Positions 24,964 through 55,388 of a DNA stretch of 64,000 nucleotides are shown here, one piece after another. The DNA comes from Clostridia bacterium (lineage in GTDB: Bacteria; Bacillota; Clostridia; UBA1212): positions 1,008 to 65,007 of the forward strand of contig JAFTXP010000017.1 in the NCBI GenBank assembly GCA_017461545.1. The letters are read 5' to 3'. The notes below the pieces were generated by a model. The model was not told the origin of the DNA and ran no database searches. It worked only from the letters and a program-made list of their open reading frames with translations. Both the position numbers and the translations under genes were made by a program. How positions within the stretch are numbered: the stretch's first letter is position 1; every line of letters begins with the position of its first letter.

Positions 24964-27462
24964 ATGGAAAGTATCGCTGCCGGAACAATATTAAACCAAA
25001 GATTTGAAATAATAGAATGTGTCGGTATCGGAGGTATGTCCGAGGTATATAAAGCTTTGGATATCGAAAACGGCGATTATTATGCATTGAAGGTTTTAAA
25101 ACCTGAATACTCGACAGAAGCTGAATTTATAAAACGTTTTAAAAATGAAGCTGAGGCTGCTTCGAAGCTTGATCATGCCAATATTGTTTCTATATACGGT
25201 ATAGGTCAGGACGGAAATATTCATTACATAATAATGGAATATGTAGAGGGAGTTACCTTAAAAGACTATATTGAGGCATATCAGTCTATTTCATGGCAGG
25301 ATGCCCTGAAAATTTCTGCGCAGATTCTTTTGGCGATGGATCATGCTCATTCTAAACATATTATTCACAGAGATATAAAACCTCATAACGTTATGATGGG
25401 TAAGGACGGATCAGTAAAGTTAGCTGATTTCGGTATTGCCAGAGCCGCAACCGGTTCGACCATAACGGCAAGTGATGACGCAGGTTCTGTTCACTATCTT
25501 TCTCCCGAACAGGCACGAGGCGGATATGTTGACGAAAGATCTGATATTTATTCTTTAGGTATTTCTCTGTTTGAAATGCTTATCGGAGTAGTTCCGTTTG
25601 ACGGAGATTCCAATGTATCTGTAGCGCTAAAACATATAGACGGAAAGATAGTGCCGCCTCACGAGATTGATATTGATATTCCGGTTGGTGTAAGCGATCT
25701 TGTTGTTATTGCTACACGAAAAGATCCCGGGATGAGGTTTCAGTCTGCCAGAGATATGATCTCAAAAATAAGAAAAGTGATAGAAAATCCCAATGAAAGT
25801 CTTATAGAAAGCTATATAGATGATCCGGAAGCAGTTGTTGCCGAAGTTCTTTCCGAGTCTAGTGCAGTAATAAAGAATAAAGAGAATCTAAACAAGGATA
25901 TATCAACATCTCATCTTTCTGAAGAAGAAAATCATGAAGCCGATATGTTTGATGATTCTTTTGATGAAGACGAAGAAGATGAAAAAAACGGAGAGAATGA
26001 TGATTCGGAAAGAAAATCTGTGCGTGTCAGAAGAGCTATTGCTCTGGTTTTGACATATATTGCCGCTTCTCTGTGTACGGTTCTTGTAATATTGTGGGTT
26101 ATATCCTGTTATAATAAATCAACTTCATCACTGAATAACATGTTTGATCAGAAGCCATATATCATGATGGATTTTACAGGTCATGATTACGATTTGGTTG
26201 TTGCGACTCTGCAAGAAAAAGGAATAATCCCGGTCGAAAAAACCGAATATACAGATGAGCTGCCTCCGGGAGTTGTAATATCTCAGAGTGTTGATTCAGG
26301 CGCAGAGGTTTTTTCAGGGAAAGAGATAACATTTACCGTGTCATGTCCGACAGATTCTTTTGAACTCACTTCTGAGCTTATAAATCAAACAAAATCATTT
26401 GAAGAAGTTCAGCAAAAATTGATAGAAAACGGTGCAGTTGTAGAGTCTTATAACGTATTGAGCACAACGGTACAGCCCGGGTGTGTTGTCAGAACAGAAC
26501 CGGATATTGGCTCATATATAAAGAAAGGTCAGACTGTTTATTTGTATGTATGTGCCGAAAAAATGAATAATCAGATTGTCGTTCCTGATTTTACCGGACT
26601 GTCTACAAGTGAAGTTTATGAAAAAGCAGGGGCTGCAGGTATTGAAAATATTACTATACATATTAAAGAAGGTGCAGATGTTACAGATATAGTTGAGAAG
26701 ATAAAAGATGCTAAAGAAGCTCTTAATCCTCCGTCTGCTACACCCACATTAAGTCCGTCATCTGATCCGGCAGTTGTGCCGACTTCAGATCCTGATATAG
26801 GTGATGATTCTTATGCTGACCCGTCGGAATCAGCGTCTTTGGAAACTGCTCCTACGGAGAATGATCTTTTGGAAACTGCGCCTTCGGAAAGTGTATCCTC
26901 GGAAACACCTTCTTCAGAGGAAGAAACGGCAGAGTCTTTTATTCCCGGAGATAATTCAGCGGTACAAGAGACTGAAAGTAATTCTTTGTCATCAAATGAT
27001 GTACCGTATGACGCTGCATTGCTTACCGAGTCAGCAACAGATGAAATAATAGAGCCGGTAAAAGCTTCCGATACCGTTGTAAGCCAATTTCCTCCGGCGA
27101 ATACGTATATATACGAAGGGGAGTCTATTGACTTGTATTTTTATGATATGAACGAATTAATATATCTTGAAAATATTGATATCGATTCGCACGGTGTGCT
27201 CACAGCGGAGATCCGAGAGTCAAAAACAGTTGAGCTGAAATATCCTACAGATATAGTAAATTCGGGAAATGTTGACTATATATATATAAAGTATACTCTT
27301 GAGACAGGCGTTGAAATTGAAGAAGAATTAATTAATCAGAGTTACAGCGATTTCCCTAAAAAGATCAATGTGCCTTTTGCATACGGTTCGAGTGTGACAA
27401 TGATTGATGTCTATATACTGAACAAGAATGATCTTTATAAGAGAATATATGTATATGATTAA
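24964..27462 (+). CDS. prkC: PASTA-domain Ser/Thr protein kinase (PrkC/PknB-like)
   Basis: Kinase motifs GIGGMSEVYKA, HRDIKPHN, DFGIAR and SPEQ. TM at ~aa 355-380. Two to three PASTA-like units, then an S/P/E-rich linker and a C-terminal domain. Confidence 0.93.
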   Translation: MESIAAGTILNQRFEIIECVGIGGMSEVYKALDIENGDYYALKVLKPEYSTEAEFIKRFKNEAEAASKLDHANIVSIYGIGQDGNIHYIIMEYVEGVTLKDYIEAYQSISWQDALKISAQILLAMDHAHSKHIIHRDIKPHNVMMGKDGSVKLADFGIARAATGSTITASDDAGSVHYLSPEQARGGYVDERSDIYSLGISLFEMLIGVVPFDGDSNVSVALKHIDGKIVPPHEIDIDIPVGVSDLVVIATRKDPGMRFQSARDMISKIRKVIENPNESLIESYIDDPEAVVAEVLSESSAVIKNKENLNKDISTSHLSEEENHEADMFDDSFDEDEEDEKNGENDDSERKSVRVRRAIALVLTYIAASLCTVLVILWVISCYNKSTSSLNNMFDQKPYIMMDFTGHDYDLVVATLQEKGIIPVEKTEYTDELPPGVVISQSVDSGAEVFSGKEITFTVSCPTDSFELTSELINQTKSFEEVQQKLIENGAVVESYNVLSTTVQPGCVVRTEPDIGSYIKKGQTVYLYVCAEKMNNQIVVPDFTGLSTSEVYEKAGAAGIENITIHIKEGADVTDIVEKIKDAKEALNPPSATPTLSPSSDPAVVPTSDPDIGDDSYADPSESASLETAPTENDLLETAPSESVSSETPSSEEETAESFIPGDNSAVQETESNSLSSNDVPYDAALLTESATDEIIEPVKASDTVVSQFPPANTYIYEGESIDLYFYDMNELIYLENIDIDSHGVLTAEIRESKTVELKYPTDIVNSGNVDYIYIKYTLETGVEIEEELINQSYSDFPKKINVPFAYGSSVTMIDVYILNKNDLYKRIYVYD

Positions 27463-28345
27463 TGGCGTTATCATAAAAGGAATAGGCGGATTGTACAGTG
27501 TAAAGACTGCTGAGGGTATATATTCATGCAATGCGCGAGGTATTTTCAGGAAAGATTCTTTTAAACCTATGATAGGTGATTTTGTTAAATTGGGTGAACT
27601 TAATCGCAGCGAAATGTCTGCTGTGATTGATGAAATTCTGCCGAGAAAGAATTCGCTTATAAGACCTGCTGTTTCAAATGTTGACAGAATAGTTCTTGTG
27701 ATTGCATCCACTGCACCTGCTCCGGATTTGTTACTTGTTGATAAGTTGCTTGTATCGGCAAATATAAAAGAAATACCTGTCGTTTTAGTTGTAAATAAAT
27801 CAGATCAGGATAATGCGGTTGCAGAAAATATATATCGTGTATATTCAAAATGTGTAGAAAAATGTATAATGACTTCTGCAATAGAAAAAAAAGGTATTGA
27901 TTCACTGTTTGAGTGTATCGGCAGCGGTATATCTGTGTTGGTCGGTCAGTCAGGTGCCGGCAAAACAACTTTGTCCGGAATTATTTTAGGTGATTCGGAG
28001 CTTAAAACAGGAACATTAAGTAAAAAAACAGAAAGAGGAAAGCATACAACACGTCATTCTGAAATATTTCCGATCCCCGGATATGATGATGCATATATCA
28101 TCGATTCGCCCGGGTTTAGTTTATTTGATTTAACAGATACTGAGTCAGGCGAATTGCATTGTTTTTATCCTGAATTTTCAAATTGCAGCGATTTATGTCG
28201 TTTTATAGATTGCAGCCATACCGGTGAACCCGGCTGTGTCGTTGACGGTCTTTTGTCATCGGGAAAGTTTGATAAAGACAGATACGCGAGATATGTTTTT
28301 CTGTATAAAGAATTAAAAGAAAAAGAAAAGAATAAGTACAAATAG
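27455..28345 (+). CDS. rsgA: Ribosome small-subunit-dependent GTPase A
   Basis: GVIIKGIGGLYSV (OB), circularly permuted GTPase NKSD...GQSGAGKTTL, and zinc knuckle CRFIDCSHTGEPGC. Confidence 0.93.
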   Translation: MINGVIIKGIGGLYSVKTAEGIYSCNARGIFRKDSFKPMIGDFVKLGELNRSEMSAVIDEILPRKNSLIRPAVSNVDRIVLVIASTAPAPDLLLVDKLLVSANIKEIPVVLVVNKSDQDNAVAENIYRVYSKCVEKCIMTSAIEKKGIDSLFECIGSGISVLVGQSGAGKTTLSGIILGDSELKTGTLSKKTERGKHTTRHSEIFPIPGYDDAYIIDSPGFSLFDLTDTESGELHCFYPEFSNCSDLCRFIDCSHTGEPGCVVDGLLSSGKFDKDRYARYVFLYKELKEKEKNKYK

Positions 28346-28360
28346 TTTTAGAGGTGTATT

Positions 28361-29008
28361 GTGAATAAAGTTGCTCCTTCGATTTTATCAGCAGATTTTT
28401 CTGTATTAGAGCAGGAAATAAAAAAAGTTGCCGATGCCGGCGCTGATTTAATACATATAGATGTTATGGATGGTCATTTTGTTCCGAACTTAACATTCGG
28501 AGCTCCGATTGTAAAATGCATCAGAAAAGTAACTGATTTGCCGTTTGATGTTCACCTTATGATAGAGAATCCGGAGAGATATCTGGAAGATTTTAAAAAT
28601 GCCGGTGCTGATATAATCACTGTTCATGCAGAAGCGTGCATTCATTTGAATGTTGTCATTCAAAAAATAAAATCTATGGGAGTAAAAGCCGGTGTTGCGA
28701 TCAATCCTGCCACTCCCTTGTGTGCTATAGAAAATGTATTAAACGATGTGGATATGGTATTACTTATGAGTGTCAATCCCGGATTCGGAGGGCAGTCATA
28801 TATAAATTCGGTTACGGATAAAATCCGTGAGCTGCGAAAAATTTGTGACGAAAAGGGCATAGAAATCGATATCGAAGTTGACGGAGGAATTGATAAAATT
28901 ACCGCATCCCGTGCTTCTGAGGCCGGCGCAAATATACTTGTGGCGGGTTCTGCGATATACGGAGCGGAAAATATATCCGAAATGATTTCTGTTATAAAGA
29001 ATGCCTGA
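28361..29008 (+). CDS. rpe: Ribulose-phosphate 3-epimerase
   Basis: GTG start. APSILSADF, HIDVMDGHFVPN, MSVNPGFGGQ and VDGGI. Confidence 0.96.
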   Translation: MNKVAPSILSADFSVLEQEIKKVADAGADLIHIDVMDGHFVPNLTFGAPIVKCIRKVTDLPFDVHLMIENPERYLEDFKNAGADIITVHAEACIHLNVVIQKIKSMGVKAGVAINPATPLCAIENVLNDVDMVLLMSVNPGFGGQSYINSVTDKIRELRKICDEKGIEIDIEVDGGIDKITASRASEAGANILVAGSAIYGAENISEMISVIKNA

Positions 29009-29043
29009 AAAATGAATAATGTCTGCGGAGGATTCGGGAGGAA

Positions 29044-29760
29044 ATGAAGCGTTTACATAAATATAAAATTGCAGATTTGACTGTAGATGTCAGACATAAT
29101 TCTTCAGTATTGCTTCGGAACGGTATGAAATATGCAGACGATTCATCGGATAAGGCGGATATCACAATTGAAGTAAGCGAAGATAGAATATTAAAGGCGC
29201 TCGAATACAATAAATCATTTGACAGGGATTATGCAGAGTATTTTGTATCGGGAATGGACTTTTATCGAAAACTGATTCCTCATTACGGATTTATGCTTCA
29301 TTCATCCTGTGTAGCAGTGGATGGAAAAGGTTATTTATTTACTGCTGACAGCGGAGTCGGAAAGTCTACCCATACATCTCTTTGGAGGGAATATTTGGGG
29401 GACAGGGCAGTTATGATAAATGATGACAAGCCTGCCATCAGATATATTGACAATAAGTTTATGGTATACGGAACTCCGTGGAGCGGAAAATCTGATGAGA
29501 GCAGTAACGAAAGTGCTGTTGTATCCGCTTTGGTTTTTCTGGAACGCGGCTCTTGTTTTGAGATAGAGGCAATTCCATGCGACAGAGCAGTTGAGAGAAT
29601 TATACCGCAGATGTTGCGTTACATCCGTCCTGAAAATGCCGCAATTCAATTTGATTTACTTGACAGGTTTTTAAAAACAGTTCCGTCATATGTGATGAAA
29701 TGTACGCAGGATATTGAAAGTGCAAAGTCTGCATGGGAGTTTTTAAGTAAAAACTTTTGA
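29044..29760 (+). CDS. HPr-kinase-C-terminal-like P-loop protein (HprK-related putative peptide/protein kinase)
   Basis: 238 aa. HSSCVAVDGKGYLFTADSGVGKSTHT is the HprK-type P-loop context. Starts 35 nt after rpe. Confidence 0.65.
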   Translation: MKRLHKYKIADLTVDVRHNSSVLLRNGMKYADDSSDKADITIEVSEDRILKALEYNKSFDRDYAEYFVSGMDFYRKLIPHYGFMLHSSCVAVDGKGYLFTADSGVGKSTHTSLWREYLGDRAVMINDDKPAIRYIDNKFMVYGTPWSGKSDESSNESAVVSALVFLERGSCFEIEAIPCDRAVERIIPQMLRYIRPENAAIQFDLLDRFLKTVPSYVMKCTQDIESAKSAWEFLSKNF

Positions 29761-29785
29761 TATGGTTTGAAGGGACGTTTTTTAT

Positions 29786-30055
29786 ATGAAAATTAATGAG
29801 AGTTTTTTATTGAAGAATATTGCAGGAAAGAATGTTGTCGTACCGGTCGGCGAAGCAGGCAAGAAACTTAACGGTATGATTACTCTGAAAAATGATTCAT
29901 CTGTATATATTTGGAAATGTTTCAAAGAAGATGTTTCAATAGAAGAAGTTGCTGATAAAATTGTCAAAGAATTTAATATAGACAGAGAAAAGGCTGTTGC
30001 ATATGTGAACAGTTTTATTGAAAAGCTTTCTCCGTACGGTGTTTTTTGCAAATGA
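29786..30055 (+). CDS. PqqD-family protein (RiPP recognition element-like), copy A
   Basis: 89 aa. Pattern LLKNIAGKNVVVP...MITLKNDSSVYIWKCFKEDVSIEEVADKIVKEFNIDREKAVAYVNSFIEKL matches the PqqD fold length and layout. Confidence 0.65.
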   Translation: MKINESFLLKNIAGKNVVVPVGEAGKKLNGMITLKNDSSVYIWKCFKEDVSIEEVADKIVKEFNIDREKAVAYVNSFIEKLSPYGVFCK

Positions 30056-30537
30056 TGGATATTAAGGGTAAAGACAGCGGAAAATTTATAAAAGAGAATA
30101 TTGGTTTATACATTTCCGACGTCAAATCTGTTGTTGATGACGGCGGAAAGTTTTTTTTACGCATCACCGGGACAAGTATGCTCCCTTTTTTGAAAAACGG
30201 ACGGGATGTTGCCGTGTTGTCAAAGCCTTCAGGACTGAAAAAATATGAAACAGCATTTTATGTCAGGTCAAACGGTCATGTTGTGCTGCATAGAATTGTT
30301 GCGGAACACGGTGGTTTTTATGATTTCTGCGGAGACCACCAAACTGAGATTGAAAAGAATATTCCCAAAGAGAATGTGATTGCTGTAATGCGTGAATATG
30401 AGAAAGATGGTAAATTGTATTCATGTAATAAAATGTCATATAAAATTAAAGCCGTGCTCTGGGTAAAGTCACGGCTTGTCAGAAAATATTCTAGAAAAAT
30501 AAAAATAAAAATTAAGCATTTGGTGAAACAACAATAG
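30052..30537 (+). CDS. S24/S26-family serine peptidase-like protein, copy A
   Basis: ATGA overlap with the PqqD stop. ITGTSMLPFLKNGRDV (GxSMxP Ser motif), VLHRIV and CGDHQ. Basic C-terminal tail. Confidence 0.65.
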   Translation: MMDIKGKDSGKFIKENIGLYISDVKSVVDDGGKFFLRITGTSMLPFLKNGRDVAVLSKPSGLKKYETAFYVRSNGHVVLHRIVAEHGGFYDFCGDHQTEIEKNIPKENVIAVMREYEKDGKLYSCNKMSYKIKAVLWVKSRLVRKYSRKIKIKIKHLVKQQ

Positions 30538-32281
30538 TTTTTTGATTAGTATAAATAACCCTTCCGGGCTTTGCTCCGCCCGGTTTTTTTACATATTTGA
30601 CACGGGTATAATCAACTTCGACTTTTGAAGAAGTTTTCAGACTGCTGTGGCGCGCTGCGCAGACAGCTGCTTCTGTTACGGCACTATTTGTAATTATGCC
30701 GCCGTTTTGTGAGATACGTAAAATGACATGCGACCCGGGAGCGTCCTTTACATGAAACCATAGATCGTTGGGATTTGCTGTTTTGAGTGTAAGCGTATCA
30801 TTTTGTTTGTTGTTTTTTCCTATAAGGATTTCATAGTTGTCAGATGTGTATAAAGATATCGGAGCGCTTTCTGAGACTTTAAATTTTTGTTTTCCGTTAC
30901 GTTTATTCTTTTCAGAAATTACACCTAAGTATCCCTGTTCGGCAAGCTCTTCGCGAATATCTGCAATATCGGCACTTTCAGTACAACTCTCAAGATGTTC
31001 TTCCACACTCTTTAAATATTCAAGTTCTTCGATACATTTCTCCAATGACTGAATTGCATTTTCATAAGTGCTTTTTTTCTTTTTATACTTTTTATAATAG
31101 CTTTGAGCATTAAATGCGGCGGATTTATTTTTGTCCAAATCAATAACTATAGTTTCACCGTTTTCAGAATAGTAGTTTACAACTTCGATGTTTTCTTCGC
31201 CGCCTTTCAGCATATACATATTTGATGTGATAAGTTCACCTTTAATCCTGTATATATCGTAATTTTCAGATTCGCGAATAGCGGTGTCGTGAATTTGTAT
31301 CTTTTTTTCAGCACGGGCAACCGCATTGGAAAGACTTTTCTTTATGGAGGCCTTTTTCTGTCTGCTTCGCTCGATTGTATCTTTAGAAGTGAAATATTCA
31401 TCAAGCATAAGATTTATCGAACTGAAATATTTTACTTTTGACTCACAGAAGACGGTGTCGATACAGTGAAAATCAACCGGAACATCTTTTTCCGTTGGAG
31501 TATCGCCTATAATAACAGCAGGCTTATATGAGTGCATTGAGATATCATTGCATACTTTTTTGAGCTCTGAAAAAACACGTTTTAAAGATTCGTAAGGCAA
31601 TGAAAGAGCGGCGGACTGCGGCGATACTCCTGCCTTTAAACAAATTGTTTTGCAGAGAAGAGGACTGAAGCCGCTTAAATTATTTAAAATATATGACGAA
31701 ATGTTTCCGTTAAAGTTATCGGGAATCCGGCTCCTGACAAATTTGTCTACTTCTGCATCACAGTTTGGCTCTGTTTTATTCTGTTGCGGAGGTAATACAT
31801 ATGGATGTGCCGGTAAAACTTCTCTCAGACTGCTCATAGAGCTGTCGATATGTTTAATGGAGTCATATATAACACCGGTAGGGCTAAGGAGCATGATATT
31901 ACTGTGCCTGCCCATTATTTCTATTACAAGTTTTTTCTCAACCGGATCGCCGAGCTCATTGTATGTGTCAATCTTTATACTGATGACACGGTCAAAACCT
32001 GCCTGTCTTATCTCCGATATTTTTCCGCCCTGGATATGTTTTCTCAAAACCATACAGAAAGGCGGAGCAAACGCAGGATTTTCCTTTTTTTGTTTGGTGA
32101 GATGAATACGGGGATTCGCCGGACTTGCACTGAGTAAAAGACGGTACTTTTCGTGCATGGAATGGCATAACAAGATTATTTCATCCTGTTCTGTCTGATA
32201 TATTTTTTCTATTCGTCCGCCTGTAAGCAGTCCGGAAAGTTCCCACACAACTCCGGATGCAATGATACCGTCATATGGCAT
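30512..32281 (-). CDS. rqcH: Ribosome quality control protein RqcH (NFACT / FbpA family)
   Basis: 589 aa. N-terminus MPYDGIIASGVVWEL...GGRIEKIYQ, a coiled-coil middle, and the NFACT-R motif DLWFHVKDAPGSHVIL. Confidence 0.9.
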   Translation of the reverse strand: MPYDGIIASGVVWELSGLLTGGRIEKIYQTEQDEIILLCHSMHEKYRLLLSASPANPRIHLTKQKKENPAFAPPFCMVLRKHIQGGKISEIRQAGFDRVISIKIDTYNELGDPVEKKLVIEIMGRHSNIMLLSPTGVIYDSIKHIDSSMSSLREVLPAHPYVLPPQQNKTEPNCDAEVDKFVRSRIPDNFNGNISSYILNNLSGFSPLLCKTICLKAGVSPQSAALSLPYESLKRVFSELKKVCNDISMHSYKPAVIIGDTPTEKDVPVDFHCIDTVFCESKVKYFSSINLMLDEYFTSKDTIERSRQKKASIKKSLSNAVARAEKKIQIHDTAIRESENYDIYRIKGELITSNMYMLKGGEENIEVVNYYSENGETIVIDLDKNKSAAFNAQSYYKKYKKKKSTYENAIQSLEKCIEELEYLKSVEEHLESCTESADIADIREELAEQGYLGVISEKNKRNGKQKFKVSESAPISLYTSDNYEILIGKNNKQNDTLTLKTANPNDLWFHVKDAPGSHVILRISQNGGIITNSAVTEAAVCAARHSSLKTSSKVEVDYTRVKYVKKPGGAKPGRVIYTNQKTIVVSPNA

Positions 32282-32444
32282 TTTTAATATGCTCCTTTAA
32301 TAATTATTCTGTGAATATAATACCTTGACAGATTTTTATTAGCAATAGAAAATTCAAAATATTTCATCTTGCGATATGCATTTTTTATGTTACAATTGTT
32401 TGTAGACTTACAGAGAAAGTGTAAGTTTGTTTAGGAGAAATATT

Positions 32445-33443
32445 ATGGGATTATTTAAATCTGAAAAATATACGAAACCCGGAAAAGGTGTAGAAAAAAA
32501 CGAAAAACAAAAACGCCCCTTTTTCAGATTTTTTGAGTTGCTTTGGAGAAAAAAATATAAATTGATAGGGATAAATCTTATATATGTCCTTATGAATTGT
32601 GTTTCCGTAATTTTTGTGTGCGGAATATTCGCGGCTGCTGTAGGTCTGTACGGAATGTTTTTAGGCGGTTCAGATTGGGTAAGCAACTTTTTTGCTTCAA
32701 GCAGTTCGGATTTGTATTTCAAGTTTATGATGTTTTTTGCAATATTCTTAACGTCTGTTCCTATATATGCGATTGGTCCGTTGCAGGCCGGTTTTACATA
32801 TATAATGAAGTCGTTTGTGAAAGAAGAACCTTGTTTTTTGTGGCACGATTATATAAGCAAGGCACGTTCCAACAGAAAACTTGCGTGGCAGGTCAGTCTG
32901 ATAAACGGTATTGCTGCGACTCTTCTGATTTTAAATTTTGCTGCATATCTGATTATAAGTGATCCTGAGGGTCCTTTCGCAGGTGCCATACCAGGGTTTA
33001 TACTGTTTATTGTTGCGCTTGTAATCATAGCACTTTTCATGATACTGGTGATGATTAATCTGTATACGTATCACATGATGGTTACATTTCGTGTCACATT
33101 GAAGCAGCTGTATAAAAACTCATTTATTCTTGTTCTTATGAAGTGGCTGCCGAATTTGCTGATGCTGATTCTTGAGGGAGTCATAATAGGTATTCCTATT
33201 TTCCTGATAGTTACGGAATATTTTGATTTTATCGTAAGTCTGTTATTATACATTTTTATAACTCCGGCATTTATAGGATTTTTAAATAATTTCTATATTT
33301 ATCCGACTATAAAAAAGTATTTAATAGACAATCCGAATGCAGATAAGTCTAAAAGTGTGCAGGAGGAAATCGAAGAGAGTAAAGAGATCGAAGAACCGGC
33401 GACAAACGGTAGGTTTGAAAACGGAATGTGGATAGAAGATTAA
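32445..33443 (+). CDS. DUF624/YesL-like multi-pass membrane protein
   Basis: SD aggag before the ATG at 32445. FFRFFELLWRKKYKLIGINLIYVLMN and about 6 TM segments. Acidic C-terminal tail. Confidence 0.5.
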   Translation: MGLFKSEKYTKPGKGVEKNEKQKRPFFRFFELLWRKKYKLIGINLIYVLMNCVSVIFVCGIFAAAVGLYGMFLGGSDWVSNFFASSSSDLYFKFMMFFAIFLTSVPIYAIGPLQAGFTYIMKSFVKEEPCFLWHDYISKARSNRKLAWQVSLINGIAATLLILNFAAYLIISDPEGPFAGAIPGFILFIVALVIIALFMILVMINLYTYHMMVTFRVTLKQLYKNSFILVLMKWLPNLLMLILEGVIIGIPIFLIVTEYFDFIVSLLLYIFITPAFIGFLNNFYIYPTIKKYLIDNPNADKSKSVQEEIEESKEIEEPATNGRFENGMWIED

Positions 33444-33541
33444 AGGTTGTTTCATCGAAAAATGATTTGAATAGTTTTTATTTATTCGGTACAACATAAC
33501 AAAAGTTTAGATTAAGTAACAGAAGGGATAGTGTGTGGTTT

Positions 33542-34615
33542 ATGAGTAATTCATACATAAAGACAAAAAAGTCGGGCAGCAAAGCCGTAATTATTATATT
33601 GTCGTCTGTATTGGCTGTTGTTTTGATTGTGGCAATAGTTTTAGCTGTTATTCTGATAAATAAGTCAGATGATAAGGACAAAGGTTCGGATAATAGTTTG
33701 AGTAATAGTTCAATCGACAGTTCCGGTGACGGTAATGTAGATCCTAATAGCAGTTCAGGTGACAGCTCAAATGATGGAAGTACGCAGGAATCTCCTGCTG
33801 AAACCGATGAAAATACTATTGCAACAAGATTCAGTGTTCCTGAAGGATATATAAGAGTAGATGTAGAAGCGGGCAGCTTTGCCGAATATATAAGAAATTA
33901 TACACTGAAGCCAAAAGGTTCGATTGCATACTATTATGATGATGAAACCGGCTCTTATTTTGAAAATAAAGAGGCTTCGACAGTAGGTGTATTTGAGTTG
34001 CCTAACCAGCTTAATAGATGGATGCAGTGTGCTGATTCAGTAATAATGTTGTATGCCGAGTACCTTTATTCACAACAGAAGTACAGTGAAATTTCATTTA
34101 CTTTTGCAAATGGATTTGAGTGTGATTGGCTTACGTATTCACAAGGAAACCGATTTAATTCTTCCAACAGCACATGGGAGTTAAAGGCAGATCCGGATGA
34201 TTCATATGAATCTTTTCAGAAGTATCTTGATCTTGTATATCAGTATGCAAATACCGATTCACTTGCGAGAGATATGAGTTCCAGTCCTGCTATGCAGGAT
34301 ATAAGCATCGGTGATGCATTTGTCGTAGGCGTTTCCCAATTACAGGCAGTAGCCGCTGCTGTCGCACCCGGCATAGACATAAAATACGGACATGCGATAT
34401 TTGTTGCAGATGTTGCTGTAAATCCCACTACAGGTGAGTGTATTTTTATGCTTGCAGAGGGTAATACGCCTGCTACCGATATTACAATCATTGAAAATCC
34501 GGATACTTCAATGGGTGTTTGGTTTAAATTCAACGAAGTAGGATCATTTGTAAAGAACGAAAACCCCGGAATTCCGTGGTCTGCAGCATGGCTTAAGAGA
34601 TTTCCCGGACAGTGA
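33542..34615 (+). CDS. DUF4846-like membrane-anchored protein
   Basis: N-terminal TM and an S/D/G-rich linker. The C-terminal region ...YGHAIFVADVAVNPTTGECIFMLAEGNTPATDITIIENP...W matches the DUF4846 pattern as remembered. An alternative GTG start lies at 33533. Confidence 0.55.
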   Translation: MSNSYIKTKKSGSKAVIIILSSVLAVVLIVAIVLAVILINKSDDKDKGSDNSLSNSSIDSSGDGNVDPNSSSGDSSNDGSTQESPAETDENTIATRFSVPEGYIRVDVEAGSFAEYIRNYTLKPKGSIAYYYDDETGSYFENKEASTVGVFELPNQLNRWMQCADSVIMLYAEYLYSQQKYSEISFTFANGFECDWLTYSQGNRFNSSNSTWELKADPDDSYESFQKYLDLVYQYANTDSLARDMSSSPAMQDISIGDAFVVGVSQLQAVAAAVAPGIDIKYGHAIFVADVAVNPTTGECIFMLAEGNTPATDITIIENPDTSMGVWFKFNEVGSFVKNENPGIPWSAAWLKRFPGQ

Positions 34616-34648
34616 CAAATTGTGTAATAAAAACTAAAAAATAGGACA

Positions 34649-34688
34649 AAATAACCACCTAAGATAATAATCAAAGGTGGTTATTTTT
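34649..34688 (+). promoter_or_regulatory. 12-bp perfect hairpin that contains the sleB Shine-Dalgarno (terminator and/or translational block)
   Basis: aaataaccacct (34649..34660) pairs with aggtggttattt (34675..34686). The SD aaaggtgg lies in the 3' arm. tt then the ATG at 34689 follow. Confidence 0.5.
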
Positions 34689-35435
34689 ATGAACAGAAAA
34701 AAACTGTATGAGGTCATATGTGTATTAACTGTTATAGCAATCTTTGCTTCGTCATTAATTATTGGTGAATCATACTTTTACGGCAGTAATGATTTTATCG
34801 GTATCAGCGAAAATGATGAGGTTATAGCAGAGGCGCAGGATGCGTTGTCAAAAAGAGGTTCATACGGAAGCGAAGTCCGCCAGATTCAGACGAAACTGAA
34901 AAACTGGGGATATTATAACGGTGATATTGACGGGATATACGGCAGCAGGACAGAAAGTGCGGTAAAAAGTTTTCAGCGTAAAAACGGTCTGACCGTTGAC
35001 GGTATAGCAGGACCTGCCACTCTTGCTGCAATGGGGATATCTTCGGGATCGTCGGGTTCAACATCCGTATCGGCTTCTTCAGCAAATGTAGAGCTTCTGG
35101 CAAGAATCATATACGGAGAGGCAAGAGGCGAACCTTACGCAGGACAAGTTGCAATAGCGGCAGTTGTTCTTAACCGAGTGGAAGATAGCAGATTTCCAAA
35201 GACGATTTCCGGGGTAATTTATCAGTCCGGTGCTTTTGATGCGGTTTCAGACGGACAGATAAATTATACGCCTAACTCAACTGCGTATCAGGCGGCAAGA
35301 GATGCGTTAAACGGATGGGATCCGACCTACGGCAGTATATACTATTATAATCCTGTAACTGCAACAAACAGATGGATAAAGACTCTGCCTATAACTGTAA
35401 CAATAGGAAAGCATGTTTTTTCTGTAGGAAAGTAG
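34689..35435 (+). CDS. sleB: Spore cortex-lytic enzyme SleB-like (PG_binding_1 + Hydrolase_2)
   Basis: GSEVRQIQTKLKNWGYYNGDIDGIYGSRTESAVKSFQRKNGLTVDGIAGPATL (PG-binding) and IIYGEARGEPYAGQVAIAAVVLNRV...FPKTISGVIYQSGAFDAV (SleB hydrolase). Confidence 0.88.
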   Translation: MNRKKLYEVICVLTVIAIFASSLIIGESYFYGSNDFIGISENDEVIAEAQDALSKRGSYGSEVRQIQTKLKNWGYYNGDIDGIYGSRTESAVKSFQRKNGLTVDGIAGPATLAAMGISSGSSGSTSVSASSANVELLARIIYGEARGEPYAGQVAIAAVVLNRVEDSRFPKTISGVIYQSGAFDAVSDGQINYTPNSTAYQAARDALNGWDPTYGSIYYYNPVTATNRWIKTLPITVTIGKHVFSVGK

Positions 35436-35538
35436 TTTAATTTTGTAAAAAATCAACAGATATGTATTTACTTTGAATAACAGATTACATTATTATATTT
35501 TTTTAAAGTATGAGATAAAAGGAGTGGAGATGTAACAA

Positions 35539-35808
35539 ATGCAGTATAAGATATGTGACAATATTGAAGTAACTGAAGTTTCCGGAGAAGAATTTATAAT
35601 ATGTTTTGATGTCGAAAGCGGAGAATCTCATGTGCTTGATGTTGCGGCAACGGCTGTTTTAAATACCGTCGGAAAAGGTATGTCTTTAGAGGCTGCCGTT
35701 AATGCGATTGCGGCGGAGTTCGAGGCAGAACCGGGTGAGATAGCAGGAGATGTAGCCGCATTTACACAGACTTTGATTGAAAAGAAAATCATTGAAAAGG
35801 CTGTGTAA
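35539..35808 (+). CDS. PqqD-family protein, copy B
   Basis: 89 aa. EVSGEEFIICFDVESGESHVLDVAATAVLNTVGKGMSLEAAVNAIAAEFEAEPGEIAGDVAAFTQTLIEKKII is the PqqD layout. Confidence 0.65.
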   Translation: MQYKICDNIEVTEVSGEEFIICFDVESGESHVLDVAATAVLNTVGKGMSLEAAVNAIAAEFEAEPGEIAGDVAAFTQTLIEKKIIEKAV

Positions 35809-35815
35809 TACATAA

Positions 35816-36178
35816 ATGGGTATTGAAAGTATTAACGAGAAAAATTTGCTCAGAACAATTTTTTTGCGGCAGATAAAAATTGACAATTTAATTGAAATAC
35901 GCGGTTTCAGCATGGAGCCGACATATTATGCCGGCGATAAGGTCAAGGTAGAAACCGCACCCTGCTATAAAGTGGGTGATGTTGTTATCGCAATAGATGA
36001 CCCTTGCAGACTTCTGATACACAGAGTAGTAGAGGTTATACACGGAGCAGGCGATGAAGGTATAGTTTATAAAATTAAAGGCGATAATGCAGAAGCCTGT
36101 GAAATGATTCCTGCGAAGTATTGTCTTGCAAAAGTCACGGAAGATAAGCAGAATCTTAAGTCAGAGAGGCGGAAATAA
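35816..36178 (+). CDS. S24/S26-family serine peptidase-like protein, copy B
   Basis: 120 aa. IRGFSMEPTYYAGDKV (GxSMxPT), LIHRVV and KIKGDN (box-E-like). Confidence 0.65.
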   Translation: MGIESINEKNLLRTIFLRQIKIDNLIEIRGFSMEPTYYAGDKVKVETAPCYKVGDVVIAIDDPCRLLIHRVVEVIHGAGDEGIVYKIKGDNAEACEMIPAKYCLAKVTEDKQNLKSERRK

Positions 36179-36180
36179 AT

Positions 36181-37218
36181 ATGACAGAAGGCGCAATGAT
36201 AAGCGGTGCATACATAGAGATAACAAACAGATGTAATCTTAATTGCAGGGATTGCTACAATGCTTCGGGTTTAAATCGTACAACCTGCGAGATTTCGCCG
36301 GAGGATTTGGAAAAGTTTATAACGATGCTCTATGAAGGATGCGATGCAAAAGCTTTTTCTATTTCAGGCGGAGAGCCGACCATGCATACGAGATGGAACG
36401 AAGTGTGTGACATGATTGAACGAATGAAGCATATAAAGTTTACCGTTATTACAAACGGTACTACGGGAAATAAAAGGCTTAAAGAGCTTTTAGAAAATAA
36501 TGACCATGTGACGGTTCAGTACAGTATCGACGGTACCTGTGCCGAAATACACGACCAGATGAGGGGCAAAGGTAAATTCGATATTACCATGAAAAATATT
36601 TCTGAGATGAATCCTAAAATTAAACCGTATTTCCACATGGTTGTAGCTCCTTTCAACCGTGACAATGTTAAAGACTATTTTGAATTTGCGGAAGAGCACA
36701 ACGCGACCCCGACATTTTCTTTTACCTCAAAACACGGCAATGCGAGTGATAATTGGGATGAGATTTCAATGAATGACTCACAGCGTCTTGAGTCGCTGAC
36801 GGTGATTATTGACGAGTATAAAAAGAGAAAAATAGAGAATATTCCGGCTCCTTTTTGTACGGTCAAGTGTGCACTTACGGATCCTGCAAACAAGTTTAAT
36901 TTGTGTGTAACACCTTACGGCGATATCTATCCGTGTCAAGGTCTTTATGATAAAAAATTTTCGCTCGGTATATTGCATGATTTTAATTTAAGTGCGATAA
37001 TAAAAAAAGCGGAGAAGATGAGACAAACGCTGATTGAGCGCACCGAAAAAGATTACGGTTGTAAACGCTGTTTGGTTCGTTCCGTTTGCGGAAAAGGCTG
37101 TGCGGCATCCGCTTATACGCTGTGCGGCGACATAATGGGCTTTGACGGCGATTGCGGTTACAGGCGAAAAGTTTTGATAAAATACTATCTTATGCCATCT
37201 GCTAGGGGTATTTCCTGA
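36181..37218 (+). CDS. Radical SAM enzyme with C-terminal SPASM domain
   Basis: ITNRCNLNCRDCYN (CxxxCxxC), SGGEPTM, and the C-terminal auxiliary-cluster motif YPCQG...CKRCLVRSVCGKGCAASAY (Cx2Cx5Cx3C). Confidence 0.85.
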   Translation: MTEGAMISGAYIEITNRCNLNCRDCYNASGLNRTTCEISPEDLEKFITMLYEGCDAKAFSISGGEPTMHTRWNEVCDMIERMKHIKFTVITNGTTGNKRLKELLENNDHVTVQYSIDGTCAEIHDQMRGKGKFDITMKNISEMNPKIKPYFHMVVAPFNRDNVKDYFEFAEEHNATPTFSFTSKHGNASDNWDEISMNDSQRLESLTVIIDEYKKRKIENIPAPFCTVKCALTDPANKFNLCVTPYGDIYPCQGLYDKKFSLGILHDFNLSAIIKKAEKMRQTLIERTEKDYGCKRCLVRSVCGKGCAASAYTLCGDIMGFDGDCGYRRKVLIKYYLMPSARGIS

Positions 37219-37328
37219 CTTTCTTCATAATTACAAATGCTTTGAGAAGTTACTGTTCTGAACTTTTTAGTTTCATCGTCATATTATTTATTATGTATTT
37301 TTAATTTTATTTCGGAAGGTGACTTTTT

Positions 37329-41682: not shown

Positions 41683-41887
41683 TAAATCTACACTCTTACC
41701 TCGGCTGTTTTTGCCATGATAGACAGTTGTTTTACAGTTTTATTGCAAACTGTAAAATCGATAGTGTATACTGTAAGACACAGTAAGATATTTTTCACAG
41801 TACATATTTTCTATAACTTTTATATTTCATACAGCTATAGATATCTTAACTTAAAAAGAGGGATATTTATGGTTGTTTTTCATGGCA
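41683..41887 (+). repeat. ~205-bp direct repeat, copy 1 (promoter/leader and first 6 codons of the DUF3990 gene)
   Basis: Near-identical to 43437..43642, with a few substitutions and a 1-nt indel. Contains the palindrome ttttacagttt-N6-aaactgtaaaa overlapping TTGCAA. Confidence 0.9.
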
Positions 41888-42348
41888 GCGATGTTGCTGT
41901 TGCATGTCCTGTTATTCTTACTCCGAAGCGACCGCTTGATTTCGGTGCGGGTTTTTATGTGACGGAGAGCAGGGAGCAGTCAGAGAGTTGGGCGAAGAAA
42001 GTTGCGATACGAAATTTTACGACAAAAAGAATAGTCAGCATTTATGACTTTGATGTTGAAGCTGCAGAGAAAAGTGTACATATTATTCGGTTTGATAATG
42101 TGGATAGTACTTGGTTAAACTTTATATGTAATAACAGAAAAGGTTTGACGGATTTTGAGTATGATATTGCGATAGGGCCGGTTGCCGATGATAAGGTGTA
42201 CAAGGTCGTAATAGAGTACGAAATCGGTATTATTGACGAGGCGCGTGCGATTAAAAGATTAAAGGCGGAAAAACTGTATAATCAGATTGTATTTCACACG
42301 GAAGATGCATTAAAATATGTAGAGTATATAACATCGGAGGTTTTATAA
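41869..42348 (+). CDS. DUF3990 domain protein
   Basis: MVVFHGSDV...PLDFGAGFYVTESREQSESWAKK...IGPVADDKVY is the DUF3990 pattern. SD aagaggga. The ORF-track start at 41716 is an upstream read-through of repeat DNA. Confidence 0.7.
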   Translation: MVVFHGSDVAVACPVILTPKRPLDFGAGFYVTESREQSESWAKKVAIRNFTTKRIVSIYDFDVEAAEKSVHIIRFDNVDSTWLNFICNNRKGLTDFEYDIAIGPVADDKVYKVVIEYEIGIIDEARAIKRLKAEKLYNQIVFHTEDALKYVEYITSEVL

Positions 42349-42353
42349 CAGCT

Positions 42354-42566
42354 ATGGAAGATATCCGTTTCGAAGTTCTTATGTATGACAAAACAGCAAA
42401 TGTGATAGATTTATTGATAGAAAAATACGGGTGGACTGAAAATGTTGCTATCGAACGGTTTACACAGTCGGAAGTCTATTCACTTTTAGAACGTCAAGAG
42501 ACCGGATTTTGGAAGCTTTCAGATACAGAGATTGCCGAGAAGTTCTTTGATGATTTTGATATTTGA
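42354..42566 (+). CDS. Small helical protein, DUF3791-like (uncertain)
   Basis: 70 aa, immediately after DUF3990. Layout is similar to the following DUF3791 protein. Confidence 0.45.
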   Translation: MEDIRFEVLMYDKTANVIDLLIEKYGWTENVAIERFTQSEVYSLLERQETGFWKLSDTEIAEKFFDDFDI

Positions 42567-42587
42567 TGTGTTTTTAGGGGGTAGATT

Positions 42588-42788
42588 ATGACTGATACAT
42601 TAGAATTTAAAGTGTTTTGTTTTGAAGCTTACCGCAACGAGAAAAAGATGACCGGCAGTGATGTTATGGAGTTGTTTAAAAAATACGGTGTGCTTGATTA
42701 TATAGACAAGTGCTTTGATGTGCTACACACGCAGGGTAGAGCATATTTGATTTATGATATTGATATGTATATTGAGGCGAGAAAATGA
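42588..42788 (+). CDS. DUF3791 domain protein
   Basis: FKVFCFEAYRNEKKMTGSDVMELFKKYGVLDYIDKCFDVLHTQGRAYLIYDIDMYI matches the DUF3791 consensus as remembered. Confidence 0.65.
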   Translation: MTDTLEFKVFCFEAYRNEKKMTGSDVMELFKKYGVLDYIDKCFDVLHTQGRAYLIYDIDMYIEARK

Positions 42789-43267
42789 ATTTGTCAAAGA
42801 AAACAATACTATTAACAGCTTTTAAACATACATCTGCGGATAAACTGATAAAAGATATATTGGACTTTGATACTTTATTTTTGCCAAATGACAAGATATT
42901 AGATTCACAAAAGACGATTGATTATATCTCAAAGAGAAAAGTTGACTACATCATAAGTATCGGTCAAAAGCCAAATATTAAAGATAAAGTTCATATTGAA
43001 ACTCTTGCTTCAAAAAAGACGTGCAATCTTTATACATCGTTTGATTATGAAAATCTTAAAATTCTATTTGAAAAGAATGGTCTAATGGCAAAACTTTCGA
43101 ATAATGCGGGAACATCCTATTGCAATGAGTTGTACTTTAATGGGTTATCTTATATTCAGAACATAAAAACGATGCAAATGATTTTCATTCACATTCCATA
43201 TGTGAAAAACATCAGCGATTTTACCGAATTCAAAAAACGGTTTATAAATACGATTCATGAACTGTAA
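42785..43267 (+). CDS. Peptidase C15 (pyroglutamyl-peptidase I)-like protein, divergent
   Basis: ILLTAFKH, VHIETLA (Glu), SNNAGTSYCNELYF (Cys) and MIFIHIPY (His) align with the C15 catalytic triad contexts. ATGA overlap with the previous gene. Confidence 0.55.
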   Translation: MNLSKKTILLTAFKHTSADKLIKDILDFDTLFLPNDKILDSQKTIDYISKRKVDYIISIGQKPNIKDKVHIETLASKKTCNLYTSFDYENLKILFEKNGLMAKLSNNAGTSYCNELYFNGLSYIQNIKTMQMIFIHIPYVKNISDFTEFKKRFINTIHEL

Positions 43268-43300
43268 GACTCGGTTTCGGTGTGAGTTTTCTTGAACATA

Positions 43301-43350
43301 AAATGATTATGAGTTGGTTATGAGGTGTAATCGACTCATAATCATTTTTT
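43301..43350 (+). terminator. Rho-independent terminator
   Basis: aaatgattatgagt / actcataatcattt 14-bp perfect stem followed by ttt. Confidence 0.75.
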
Positions 43351-43407
43351 ATGTTTTAGAAGTGCTTATTTGTTTTCTCACTTCTTTTCCCACTAACACA
43401 AAACGGA

Positions 43408-43436
43408 TTGACACAATTTTCTCGAAAGTGTAATAG
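43408..43436 (+). promoter_or_regulatory. Promoter TTGACA-17-TAATAG (copy B of 41226..41254)
   Basis: ttgacacaattttctcgaaagtgtaatag differs from copy A at 2-3 positions. It directly abuts repeat copy 2. Confidence 0.5.
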
Positions 43437-43642
43437 TAAATCTACACTCTTACCTCGGCTGTTTTTGCCATGATAGACAGTTGTTTTACAGTTTTGTTGC
43501 AAACTGTAAAATCGATAGTGTATACTGTAAGTCGCAGTAAGATATTTTTCACAGTACATATTTTCTATAACTTTTATATTTCATACAGCCATAGATATCT
43601 TAACTTAAAAGGGGGGGATATTTATGGTTGTTTTTCATGGCA
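43437..43642 (+). repeat. ~205-bp direct repeat, copy 2 (ends in a truncated DUF3990 start: MVVFHGKISFFNF*)
   Basis: Aligns with 41683..41887. Homology stops after catggca. Confidence 0.9.
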
Positions 43643-43737
43643 AAATAAGTTTTTTTAATTTTTAGAAAATAATTACGTGGAATTGTGTAAATTGTTCCTT
43701 TAAAAAGGTCTTGCATTGTATCAATAAGATATTGATA

Positions 43738-43770
43738 TTCTATGCATATTTTGATAAAATATGCATAGAA
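43738..43770. promoter_or_regulatory. Perfect 15-bp inverted repeat (putative TA autoregulatory operator)
   Basis: ttctatgcatatttt-gat-aaaatatgcatagaa sits between a TTGCAT-17-GATATT promoter and the antitoxin SD. Confidence 0.6.
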
Positions 43771-43790
43771 TAATTAAGGGAGGTAATTTT

Positions 43791-44063
43791 ATGGCAACTA
43801 TAAGACCGAGTTCTGATTTGAGAAACAAATATAATGAGATATCTGACTTTTGTAATCGTTATAATGAGCCTGTTTTTATAACTAAAAACGGCACGGGAGA
43901 TTTAGTTGTTCTATCAAATGCAGAATATGAACGACTTTGCGGTAAAGCAGAGTTGCACAGGCTTTTGGATGAGGGACTTTTTGATGTTAAAAACGCCGCC
44001 GGTCGTGAGGCGTCCGACGTTTTTTCTGACGTAGAGAGGAAGTTCGGCTTTGACGAAATATAA
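43791..44063 (+). CDS. Type II antitoxin (Phd/YefM-RelB-like)
   Basis: MATIRPSSDLRNKYNEISDFCNRYNEPVFITKNGTGDLVVLSNAEYERL is the classic antitoxin N-domain. SD gggagg. Confidence 0.8.
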   Translation: MATIRPSSDLRNKYNEISDFCNRYNEPVFITKNGTGDLVVLSNAEYERLCGKAELHRLLDEGLFDVKNAAGREASDVFSDVERKFGFDEI

Positions 44064-44364
44064 AATAATTATAGAAAAAAGTGCTGAGAAGGATTTGAAT
44101 GATATTATTGTGTATATCGGAGAGATACTTCATGAACCTGATATCGCTATGAAAATTTATTTTTCAATAAAAATAAAGATTTTATCTTTAAAAGAGTTGC
44201 CGCTCAGATATGCTTTGATAAAAGATGAACCGTATTGTTCTATGGGAGTAAGACGAATTCCTGCTGAAAACTATACTGTTTTTTATGTTGTTGATGAAGC
44301 CGGCCGTACAGTACATATTTTTCGAATATTGCATATTCGCAGAGAGTGGAAAAGTTTGCTGTAA
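44050..44364 (+). CDS. Type II toxin, RelE/ParE family
   Basis: TTG start overlapping the antitoxin by 14 nt. IIIEKSAEKDLNDII...YTVFYVVDEAGRTVHIFRILHIRR is the ParE/RelE layout. Confidence 0.75.
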   Translation: MTKYKIIIEKSAEKDLNDIIVYIGEILHEPDIAMKIYFSIKIKILSLKELPLRYALIKDEPYCSMGVRRIPAENYTVFYVVDEAGRTVHIFRILHIRREWKSLL

Positions 44365-55317: not shown

Positions 55318-55338
55318 TTGAATTTTACGGTAAAGGAA

Positions 55339-55378: not shown

Positions 55379-55388
55379 TCTTATGCAG

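Follow-up and report, generated by a model that had tools for sequence, protein, structure and literature searches.

What do a RiPP recognition element, a peptidase and a radical S-adenosylmethionine (SAM) enzyme do in a genome that carries no substrate gene beside them (RiPP, a peptide made by the ribosome and modified after translation)? This question is raised by three adjacent genes at positions 35,539 to 37,218 of a 64,000-nucleotide stretch of DNA from a Clostridia bacterium (contig JAFTXP010000017.1, positions 1,008 to 65,007; hereafter, the window). The trio, referred to as module B, consists of the following genes:

35539..35808, + strand: PqqD_B, a stand-alone PqqD-family RiPP recognition element (RRE) of 89 aa (above the Pfam PqqD cut-off)
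35816..36178, + strand: S24_B, a small, predicted soluble S24/S26-type serine peptidase of the Sec11/SipW kind, 120 aa, the putative leader peptidase (motifs, NCBIfam, SEC11A/C alignment)
36181..37218, + strand: a radical SAM enzyme of 345 aa with a full C-terminal SPASM domain and without a fused RRE (Pfam, invariant cysteines, fold)

We consider it rather probable that module B represents a pared-down but working version of a RiPP-type cassette, so far undescribed, of gut and rumen Clostridia, and that its substrate is encoded elsewhere in the genome. An earlier note, made from the letters of the window, had described three back-to-back genes of 89, 120 and 345 aa with gaps of 7 and 2 nt; the open reading frame (ORF) coordinates were identical, with spacers at 35809-35815 and 36179-36180. 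The motifs that it named were also read in the sequence: GFSMEPT and KGDN in the 120-aa protein, and CNLNCRDC and Cx2Cx5Cx3C in the 345-aa protein.

The radical SAM enzyme passed the Pfam models Radical_SAM (PF04055; 70.6 bits), Fer4_12 (36.6 bits) and SPASM (PF13186; 22.2 bits against a cut-off of 21.5). Its CX3CX2C motif was located at C18/C22/C25, within CNLNCRDC (residues 18-25), and the SPASM motif CKRCLVRSVCGKGC (Cx2Cx5Cx3C) at residues 294-307. Together with CX3CX2C, seven more cysteine residues (C230, C252, C294, C297, C303, C307 and C325) were invariant in 41 family members; these seven would fit two auxiliary clusters. All of the 35 residues that are invariant in the family were retained in the window enzyme. 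An AlphaFold (AF2) model had a predicted local distance difference test (pLDDT) score of 94, and its best fold matches were CteB (top; template modelling (TM) score of 0.70), SuiB, SkfB and anSME, all at a TM score of about 0.7. This search supported a SPASM maturase fold and did not separate thioether, C-C and oxidative enzymes. When the profile of the family was compared with solved structures, SkfB was nearest (106 bits), followed by anSME, PqqE and CteB (73-76 bits).

No NCBIfam model reached its cut-off with this enzyme. The best match was StsB (100.5 bits; cut-off 625) and the second best MftC (96.3; 265), followed by ScmE (91.4; 400), PapB (84.8; 340), AlbA (78.7; 850), ScmF (71.6; 400), anSME (71.1; 349.45), the SCIFF maturase (61.4; 425), PqqE (59.3; 381) and SkfB (56.8; 300). 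Membership in the anSME, pyrroloquinoline quinone (PQQ) and mycofactocin families was rejected, since all of these scores were under the curated cut-offs. The firm clustering with anaerobic sulfatase-maturating enzymes (anSME) or another protein-modifying clade, which the earlier note had held against its own proposal, was therefore not found (71 versus 349 bits for anSME); furthermore, there was no sulfatase among the annotated neighbours of the trio, and a dedicated PqqD RRE is not known from anSME systems. The enzyme lacked an N-terminal fused RRE: the cluster motif begins at residue 18, and matches to StsB and AlbA start at approximately residues 94-111 of these proteins. The enzyme is a member of a small, unnamed clostridial family outside all curated families.

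An RRE partner for this enzyme is present two genes upstream, with only the 120-aa peptidase gene between. PqqD_B matched Pfam PqqD (PF05402) with an E-value of 3.8e-10 and 40.4 bits (cut-off 23.4), and so the PqqD call, whose failure in profile searches had been considered before, held. The closest solved structures were TbiB1, a lasso peptide leader-binding protein (best), and PqqD, whereas the PQQ equivalog model TIGR03859 gave only 25.2 bits, under its cut-off of 46. Module B differed from the PQQ system (PqqE/PqqD) in that both equivalog cut-offs were missed, and its neighbours were a SleB-like hydrolase gene and glmM instead of pqqA/B/C.

S24_B scored just below the cut-off of Pfam Peptidase_S24 (PF00717; 21.7 versus 23.3 bits). 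In spite of this, the peptidase call stands because of three other results: a match to NCBIfam sigpep_I_arch (E-value of 1.1e-9, 38.3 bits; cut-off 51.85), an alignment with human SEC11A/C through S32 (GFSMEPT), H69 (LIHRV) and D90 (KGDN), and orthology to S24 domains of relatives (33-43% identity) that pass the Pfam cut-off. NCBIfam SipW was also matched (E-value of 2.6e-8, 33.7 bits; cut-off 190), and the Ser, His and Asp boxes were invariant across 22 family peptidases. Since residues 1-30 (MGIESINEKNLLRTIFLRQIKIDNLIEIRG), read from the sequence, contained no hydrophobic span, S24_B is predicted to be a soluble, minimal Sec11/SipW-type Ser-His-Asp peptidase. It resembled the S26B signal peptidases (Sec11, SipW; ER and archaeal enzymes) in the alignment of the Ser (GxSMxP), His (HR) and Asp (GDN) boxes, and differed from them in having no membrane anchor, a length of only 120 aa, and scores below the curated cut-offs. 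Since it is genetically coupled to an RRE, and fused with one in relatives, it would act cytoplasmically on a RiPP leader, and not on a Sec signal peptide.

The wider setting of the trio became clear from its relatives. Beyond one relative with 89% identity (locus L092), the radical SAM family comprised approximately 70 protein clusters (335-358 aa) with 33-44% identity over 94-98% of the length and E-values of 1e-59 to 1e-92, all from Clostridia (metagenome-assembled genomes). Twenty-two genome loci of relatives were retrieved, among them Oscillospiraceae, Acutalibacteraceae, Bianqueaceae and the cultured Fumia xinanensis NSJ-33, and gene contexts were derived from the annotation of 26 loci. 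A recurring cassette was found: an ArsR-type helix-turn-helix (HTH) gene (~350 aa), a precursor peptide, an HprK/ScmC-like P-loop protein, an S24 peptidase, PqqD, the radical SAM enzyme and an NTP_transf_5 nucleotidyltransferase. In the full cassette of relatives, the ScmC-like gene always accompanied S24, PqqD and the radical SAM gene. S24 was fused with PqqD in at least 12 loci and with NTP_transf_5 in four. The S24-PqqD fusion is as expected of a leader peptidase; since lasso B proteins, too, have a protease joined to an RRE, we argue that the peptidase would act on an RRE-bound peptide. Identity between PqqD_B and the PqqD genes or domains of the cassettes was 26-34%. In two loci (L003 and L004), a full cassette occupied the chromosomal place of module B, directly after the DUF4846 and Hydrolase_2 genes. 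By this synteny, and by the orthology of PqqD and the peptidase, module B is a reduced derivative of such a cassette. In the set of papers searched, nothing described the cassette, its family of precursors or a leader peptidase of the S24-PqqD type.

Several variants of the cassette were observed. In Bianqueaceae loci L020 (9102-11017) and L022, PqqD and the radical SAM gene stood alone, with no S24, ScmC, HTH or precursor gene within 10 kb; in L020, they adjoined luxS on the opposite strand. This pair is a second, independent reduced form. Many full cassettes, namely L005 (9714-10898), L008, L009, L011-L015, L017, L018, L024, L026 and L069, contained an FkbH-like HAD domain (188 bits with NCBIfam FkbH, above the cut-off) joined to an acyl carrier protein (ACP; PP-binding), with NTP_transf_5 in the same loci; this combination suggests a glyceryl or phospho-type tailoring of the peptide, which would be beyond the reach of the reduced module in the window. 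A variant gene order was found in L093 (6633-12137): a 450-aa radical SAM enzyme, a ScmC-like protein, an AMP-binding enzyme, an 83-aa ACP-like ORF, a 369-aa ORF, a 55-aa Cys-rich ORF (MKMEYESPVLEVFFFTVKDTVMDSGQCSSFECPDGICAVDGICVTDGGIPNISSL; an aromatic-x-x-Pro leader motif is present) and PqqD.

Precursor peptides were sought by comparing the unassigned small ORFs of the loci all-against-all, followed by extension with hidden Markov models (HMMs). The largest small-ORF family shared across loci consisted of peptides of 35-50 aa in 10 loci (for example, MKTWKKPAVTTLKAGELSAYVRAAARSIMCDCMEYR), and the HMM reached 17 peptides in 15 distinct loci (E-values of 1e-12 to 1e-18), which gave the family a length range of 35-55 aa; the peptides matched no NCBIfam model. 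In the leader, invariant Trp and Pro formed a W-x-x-P motif, after which hydrophobic residues in alternation and an E-L/I motif were seen. Next came a stretch of A-A, G-A or S-A, an invariant Ser and, 1-5 residues on, an invariant Cys. Exactly six residues followed this Cys in most precursors, the last being Arg; overall, the C-termini were Arg, Lys or an aromatic residue, and each peptide contained one or two Cys. Apart from one Ser and one Cys, whose spacing was variable, the cores were highly variable. When positions were counted back from the variable residue preceding the invariant Ser, all 17 peptides of the alignment, as well as a fragment from L011, had Ala or Gly at position -1 and one of Ala, Val, Gly, Ile, Leu and Ser at position -3. 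These residues would fit the specificity of signal peptidase-type enzymes, with an A-x-A-like cleavage site, and the presumed sites in relatives thus share the -3/-1 small-residue rule with the substrates of S26B signal peptidases.

Every precursor gene was located directly 3' of an HTH-family gene. This strict pairing resembles loci that encode a receptor together with a signalling peptide. In two loci, L007 (11385-13798) and L010 (12204-13780), two tandem units of HTH-like protein and precursor were found downstream of one radical SAM gene; the protein of the first unit (277 aa) lacked the C-terminal winged HTH. Among distinct relatives, 14 had 5 kb or more of sequence on either side of the radical SAM gene, and in 13 of these the precursor lay 0.2-6.7 kb from it; the exception was L020 of Bianqueaceae, in which only PqqD and the radical SAM gene are kept. 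In L026, which has little upstream flank, the precursor was 8.4 kb downstream. An N-terminally truncated match (E-value of 5e-6) was found at 4880-4969 of L011, from F. xinanensis NSJ-33. In this frame, agreement with the profile started only halfway through the leader (ANVLTLTAKELKVQIKAAARSWGCTTAQSR), with the W-x-x-P part out of frame; this may reflect a disrupted gene or an assembly error. The proposal that module B encodes an RRE-dependent radical SAM/SPASM peptide maturase with a dedicated S26-like leader peptidase was thus supported by orthologs 0.2-8.4 kb from a precursor gene and by a peptidase that is often fused with PqqD.

On the other hand, no member of this precursor family was found in the window. 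The flanks of the trio (35436-35538 and 37219-37328) contained no ORF of at least 20 aa with a plausible start, which agreed with the earlier failure to find a plausible precursor there. The precursor HMMs of the relatives, used against the six-frame translation of all 64 kb, gave nothing (best E-values of 7 to 17), and scanning the window with the W-x-K/R-P motif, with leader-like and core-like regular expressions and for intergenic small ORFs filtered by ribosome-binding sites yielded nothing convincing. HMMs of the HTH and NTP_transf_5 families of the cassette had zero matches in the window, and that of the cassette ScmC matched only a second module (1.5e-5; module A, see below). The window is nearly the entire 64,394-bp metagenome scaffold; short extensions past its ends contained only rho, rpmE and tig, and no precursor. 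Upstream of the trio, the absence of the precursor extends over at least 36 kb, and downstream over at least 26 kb. Two Cys-containing small ORFs (17666-17782 and 55318-55425) lacked a leader motif and were not linked with the module. The latter (+ strand; MNFTVKEATACQFCKTDTPLLLCSHTRKFCECDIE), 35 aa in length, starts with TTG and contains six Cys; it adjoins the end of the gene before it, at the beginning of a 483-nt intergenic region, and may be due to chance.

Is the trio still functional? Comparison with L092, which has the same gene order from priA to glmM including both modules, was informative. Synonymous sites between the window and L092 were saturated. The radical SAM protein showed 89% identity and a nonsynonymous substitution rate (dN) of 0.068, the lowest of 11 genes; the other ten (eight neighbours, PqqD_B and S24_B) showed 60-81% identity, with a dN above that of the radical SAM gene in each. 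Four of these were:

rpe versus L092: 73% identity, dN 0.20
rsgA versus L092: 75% identity, dN 0.17
PqqD_B versus L092: 75% identity, dN 0.157
S24_B versus L092: 68% identity, dN 0.152

The trio is under purifying selection. The identical radical SAM protein was also present on 15 contigs from several samples. A conservation higher than that of rpe, rsgA and the adjoining SleB-like hydrolase gene, all within 27428-35435, is unusual for an enzyme of secondary metabolism. These results bear on a decaying, functionless remnant, left after the loss of the ScmC, NTP_transf_5, HTH and precursor genes: four ancestral components are indeed missing at a locus that is syntenic with the full cassettes of L003 and L004, and no substrate is visible. 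Because of the lowest dN and the identity of the radical SAM protein across samples, such a relic is very unlikely; moreover, all three ORFs are intact, the radical SAM enzyme retains all 35 invariant residues and the peptidase its catalytic Ser, His and Asp, and the trio is kept in L092 in spite of the saturated synonymous sites.

If module B is a functional derivative of the cassette, its mechanism may be envisaged as follows. The stand-alone PqqD_B would bind the leader of a ribosomal peptide (with an invariant Trp-x-x-Pro in the leaders of relatives) and hand the peptide to the radical SAM/SPASM enzyme, which would take a hydrogen atom from the core and install a modification, most probably at the invariant Cys, for example a thioether cross-link. 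Thioether formation is the simplest guess, given SkfB, StsB and CteB as closest neighbours. The leader would then be cut off at an Ala-x-Ala-like site by the small, cytosolic serine peptidase of the Sec11/SipW type. The window lineage would have lost the ScmC-like, NTP_transf_5 and ArsR-HTH genes together with the adjacent precursor, with the trio becoming fixed in the core genome; because the adjacent precursor was lost, the substrate would be encoded elsewhere in the genome.

This scheme may be compared with known systems. The sactipeptide and ranthipeptide synthases (SkfB, AlbA, StsB, CteB and PapB) were the best sequence and structure neighbours, and the precursors of relatives have an invariant core Cys. 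However, the RRE is fused N-terminally in these synthases, whereas it is a separate gene or fused with the peptidase here; scores were 6- to 8-fold under the cut-offs of these families, only one core Cys is invariant, and these systems have no counterpart of the leader, the coupling with ArsR-HTH or the S26-type peptidase. The precursors of relatives also contain one or two Cys, and not six as in ranthipeptide/SCIFF. Lasso leaders carry a YxxP motif, which the aromatic-x-x-Pro motif of the relatives resembles. The lasso B1/B2 (or fused B) proteins likewise combine a PqqD-type RRE with a leader protease, split or fused, and TbiB1 was the best solved match of PqqD_B. Lasso systems differed in their transglutaminase-fold Cys protease, in contrast to the Ser-His signal peptidase-like protease here, and in the lasso cyclase (an Asn-synthetase homolog), which is absent here, with a radical SAM/SPASM enzyme in its place. 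HprK-like kinases and PF14907 nucleotidyltransferases are lasso tailoring enzymes (PMC8498205).

SynChlorMet (ScmC, ScmD and ScmE/F) and the HPr-rel-A system of NCBIfam/TIGRFAMs share with the cassette an HprK-like ScmC, a PqqD homolog and a PqqE-like radical SAM/SPASM enzyme, and there were weak matches to ScmC, ScmD (19.3 bits; cut-off 100), ScmE and HprK_rel_A. Nevertheless, every match was far under its cut-off and the taxa were different; furthermore, the present cassette combines one radical SAM enzyme with an S24 peptidase and an ArsR-HTH gene, and its precursor family can be identified.

Mycofactocin (MftB/MftC/MftE) is similar in its discrete PqqD-family RRE, ~340-aa radical SAM/SPASM enzyme without a fused RRE and dedicated peptidase in one operon. 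The differences were that the window peptidase is a Ser-His S26-type enzyme and MftE belongs to the creatininase family, that there are no mftD/F genes and no MftA-like ORF in the window, that the MftC score (96 bits) is far from its cut-off (265), and that the precursors of relatives contain invariant Ser and Cys instead of the C-terminal Val-Tyr of MftA. This system is relevant to a further explanation, in which the radical SAM enzyme was recruited to another substrate (an unrelated peptide or a stretch of a larger protein) and yields an intracellular, cofactor-like product, as in the logic of PQQ or mycofactocin. The core-genome position, the unusual conservation (dN below rpe and rsgA) and the lack of a transporter favoured it somewhat; MftC was the second-best profile match (96 bits), the arrangement of a discrete RRE, radical SAM/SPASM enzyme and peptidase is that of MftB/MftC/MftE, genes for immunity, an HTH protein or a precursor are likewise absent from the vicinity, and a second reduced form (PqqD and the radical SAM gene only) occurs in Bianqueaceae. 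We regard it as quite improbable in the face of the widely missed MftC, PqqE and anSME cut-offs, the lack of downstream cofactor-tailoring genes, a PqqD-type RRE that implies a leader peptide, and the variable cores and Ser-Cys spacing of the relatives, which are unlike those of a cofactor precursor.

The window contains a second module of the same style, module A, upstream of module B (29044-29760, 29786-30055 and 30046-30537):

29044..29760, + strand: a 238-aa P-loop protein of the HprK/ScmC kind (below the NCBIfam cut-offs for ScmC, 1.7e-5, and HPr kinase, 2.7e-4; Pfam Hpr_kinase_C 1.4e-3)
29786..30055, + strand: PqqD_A, a PqqD-family RRE, 89 aa (Pfam PqqD 3.1e-9)
30046..30537, + strand: S24/S26-type peptidase, 163 aa (Pfam Peptidase_S24 1.1e-3, below the cut-off)

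The ScmC-like protein scored 24.4 bits with NCBIfam ScmC (cut-off 125) and had at least 7833 homologs, on which PF27840 ScmC is precomputed; it was only distantly related to the ScmC-like genes of the cassette, with a match over the P-loop stretch only. PqqD_A showed no BLASTP match to the PqqDs of the radical SAM cassettes and 70% identity to the copy in L092. In the peptidase, GTSMLP, VLHRIV and CGDHQ aligned with the catalytic Ser, His and Asp motifs of the family. By sequence, module A appears to be a different system of the same style, from a far larger family. Acetivibrio cellulolyticus and Desulfosporosinus have the order small ORF, ScmC, PqqD, S24, ABC transporter and NTP_transf_5. Candidate precursors of 37-40 aa were observed directly upstream of ScmC in A. 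cellulolyticus and Desulfosporosinus sp. FKA (L090, 5707-5820, and L091, 4562-4684), with a K-x-Y-E-x-P-x-I-E-I leader. These small ORFs, MKNKKHYEAPEIEIQQFEVEDIIASSGLIPDSDEITM and MKKAYEKPLIEIEEFEAEDICTLSCKHSPSDDSGWGGINS (the latter with a GTG start read as Met), both have an aromatic-x-x-Pro leader. The family of module A seems to form a RiPP-like cassette that is very widespread, has not been described and contains neither a radical SAM enzyme nor a cyclase. Module A of the window has no precursor, transporter or NTP_transf_5, and the ScmC-like gene stands alone in some other Clostridia.

The ScmC-like protein of module A may supply a ScmC-like function lost from module B. Modules A and B could then be two halves of one pathway, in which the ScmC/HprK-like protein of A replaces the lost ScmC of B and the same in-trans peptide receives a kinase-like tailoring and a radical SAM cross-link, each module contributing its own RRE and peptidase. 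The only ScmC-like gene of the window is indeed in module A, 5.8 kb upstream of module B; both modules are kept together in the same order in L092, and the precursor, transporter and NTP_transf_5 are missing from both and present in the canonical forms of both families. We nevertheless consider a joint pathway unlikely: the proteins of module A are barely similar to those of the cassette and come from a different family (at least 7833 homologs), in Acetivibrio and Desulfosporosinus this family comes with a separate type of precursor (Y-E-x-P-x-I-E leader), the ScmC-like protein is also solitary in other Clostridia, and the doubling of RRE and peptidase speaks for two distinct leaders.

Several points weigh against our preferred explanation, that module B is a functional reduced cassette acting on a substrate encoded elsewhere. 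No substrate was found for the genome of the window, and its location elsewhere is inferred from absence. A search for the ArsR-HTH family gave 47 proteins, none of which was attributable to the organism of the window. The radical SAM enzyme is an outlier of its family, with no more than 44% identity to members that have a known precursor, and its substrate could have changed. It is also approximately equidistant from thioether, C-C and oxidative SPASM enzymes. S24_B, scored alone, falls under every curated cut-off (Pfam and NCBIfam), and module B lacks the transporter or immunity gene expected beside a typical secreted RiPP.

Module B is located in the core genome, between the SleB-like hydrolase gene and glmM. 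The cell-wall hydrolase gene is followed by a 103-nt gap, in which one further feature was found:

35467..35496, + strand: promoter-like site (TTTACT, 18-nt spacer, TATTAT), weak evidence (consensus scan)

This may be the position of the operon promoter, for which the evidence is weak; promoter-like sites were not enriched in the region (seven versus a shuffle mean of 6.5). Rfam yielded only one tRNA-Met in the region and the whole window. A defence-system call by PADLOC was a generic viperin-core match to the radical SAM domain only, and was rejected. Elsewhere in the window, a small accessory patch (41716-44364) downstream of a rhamnosidase gene contained a DUF3990 protein and its 70-aa partner ORF, a truncated ORF similar to pyroglutamyl-peptidase, and a Phd/YefM antitoxin, after which comes a 104-aa ORF that overlaps it. 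Near the end of the window (61713-62555), a gene for a tyrosine recombinase (Phage_integrase) was found.

The kind of system to which module B belongs, RRE-dependent radical SAM/SPASM maturation of RiPPs, is known, and uncharacterised families of this sort are common in genome mining; the present family is unnamed. The type of leader peptidase, its fusion with the RRE, the obligatory pairing of HTH gene and precursor, and the precursor-less core-genome form are unusual. A more far-reaching reading, which we propose only tentatively and regard as doubtful in its entirety, joins these features into a new RiPP class: a cytosolic Sec11/SipW-type leader peptidase, often fused with the RRE, would operate with one radical SAM/SPASM enzyme on a core of 10-16 residues with invariant Ser and Cys, and each precursor, paired with an ArsR-type HTH protein, could be a modified signalling peptide with its receptor or regulator. 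In the window lineage, the enzymes would have been uncoupled from the precursor and retained in the core genome, more constrained than neighbouring housekeeping genes, with an in-trans peptide or a new substrate as their target.

The cassette would add a family of radical SAM-modified peptides from uncultured gut and rumen Clostridia, and the full cassette is available in at least one cultured member, F. xinanensis NSJ-33. Leader removal would be unusual, by a signal peptidase-like Ser-His protease coupled or fused to an RRE, and the regulator beside every precursor hints at signalling and not antibiosis. For genome mining, precursor-centred tools would miss or discard a locus such as module B, even though its radical SAM gene is the best-conserved gene in the neighbourhood; with the precursor profile, the missing substrate could be looked for directly once a complete genome is at hand.

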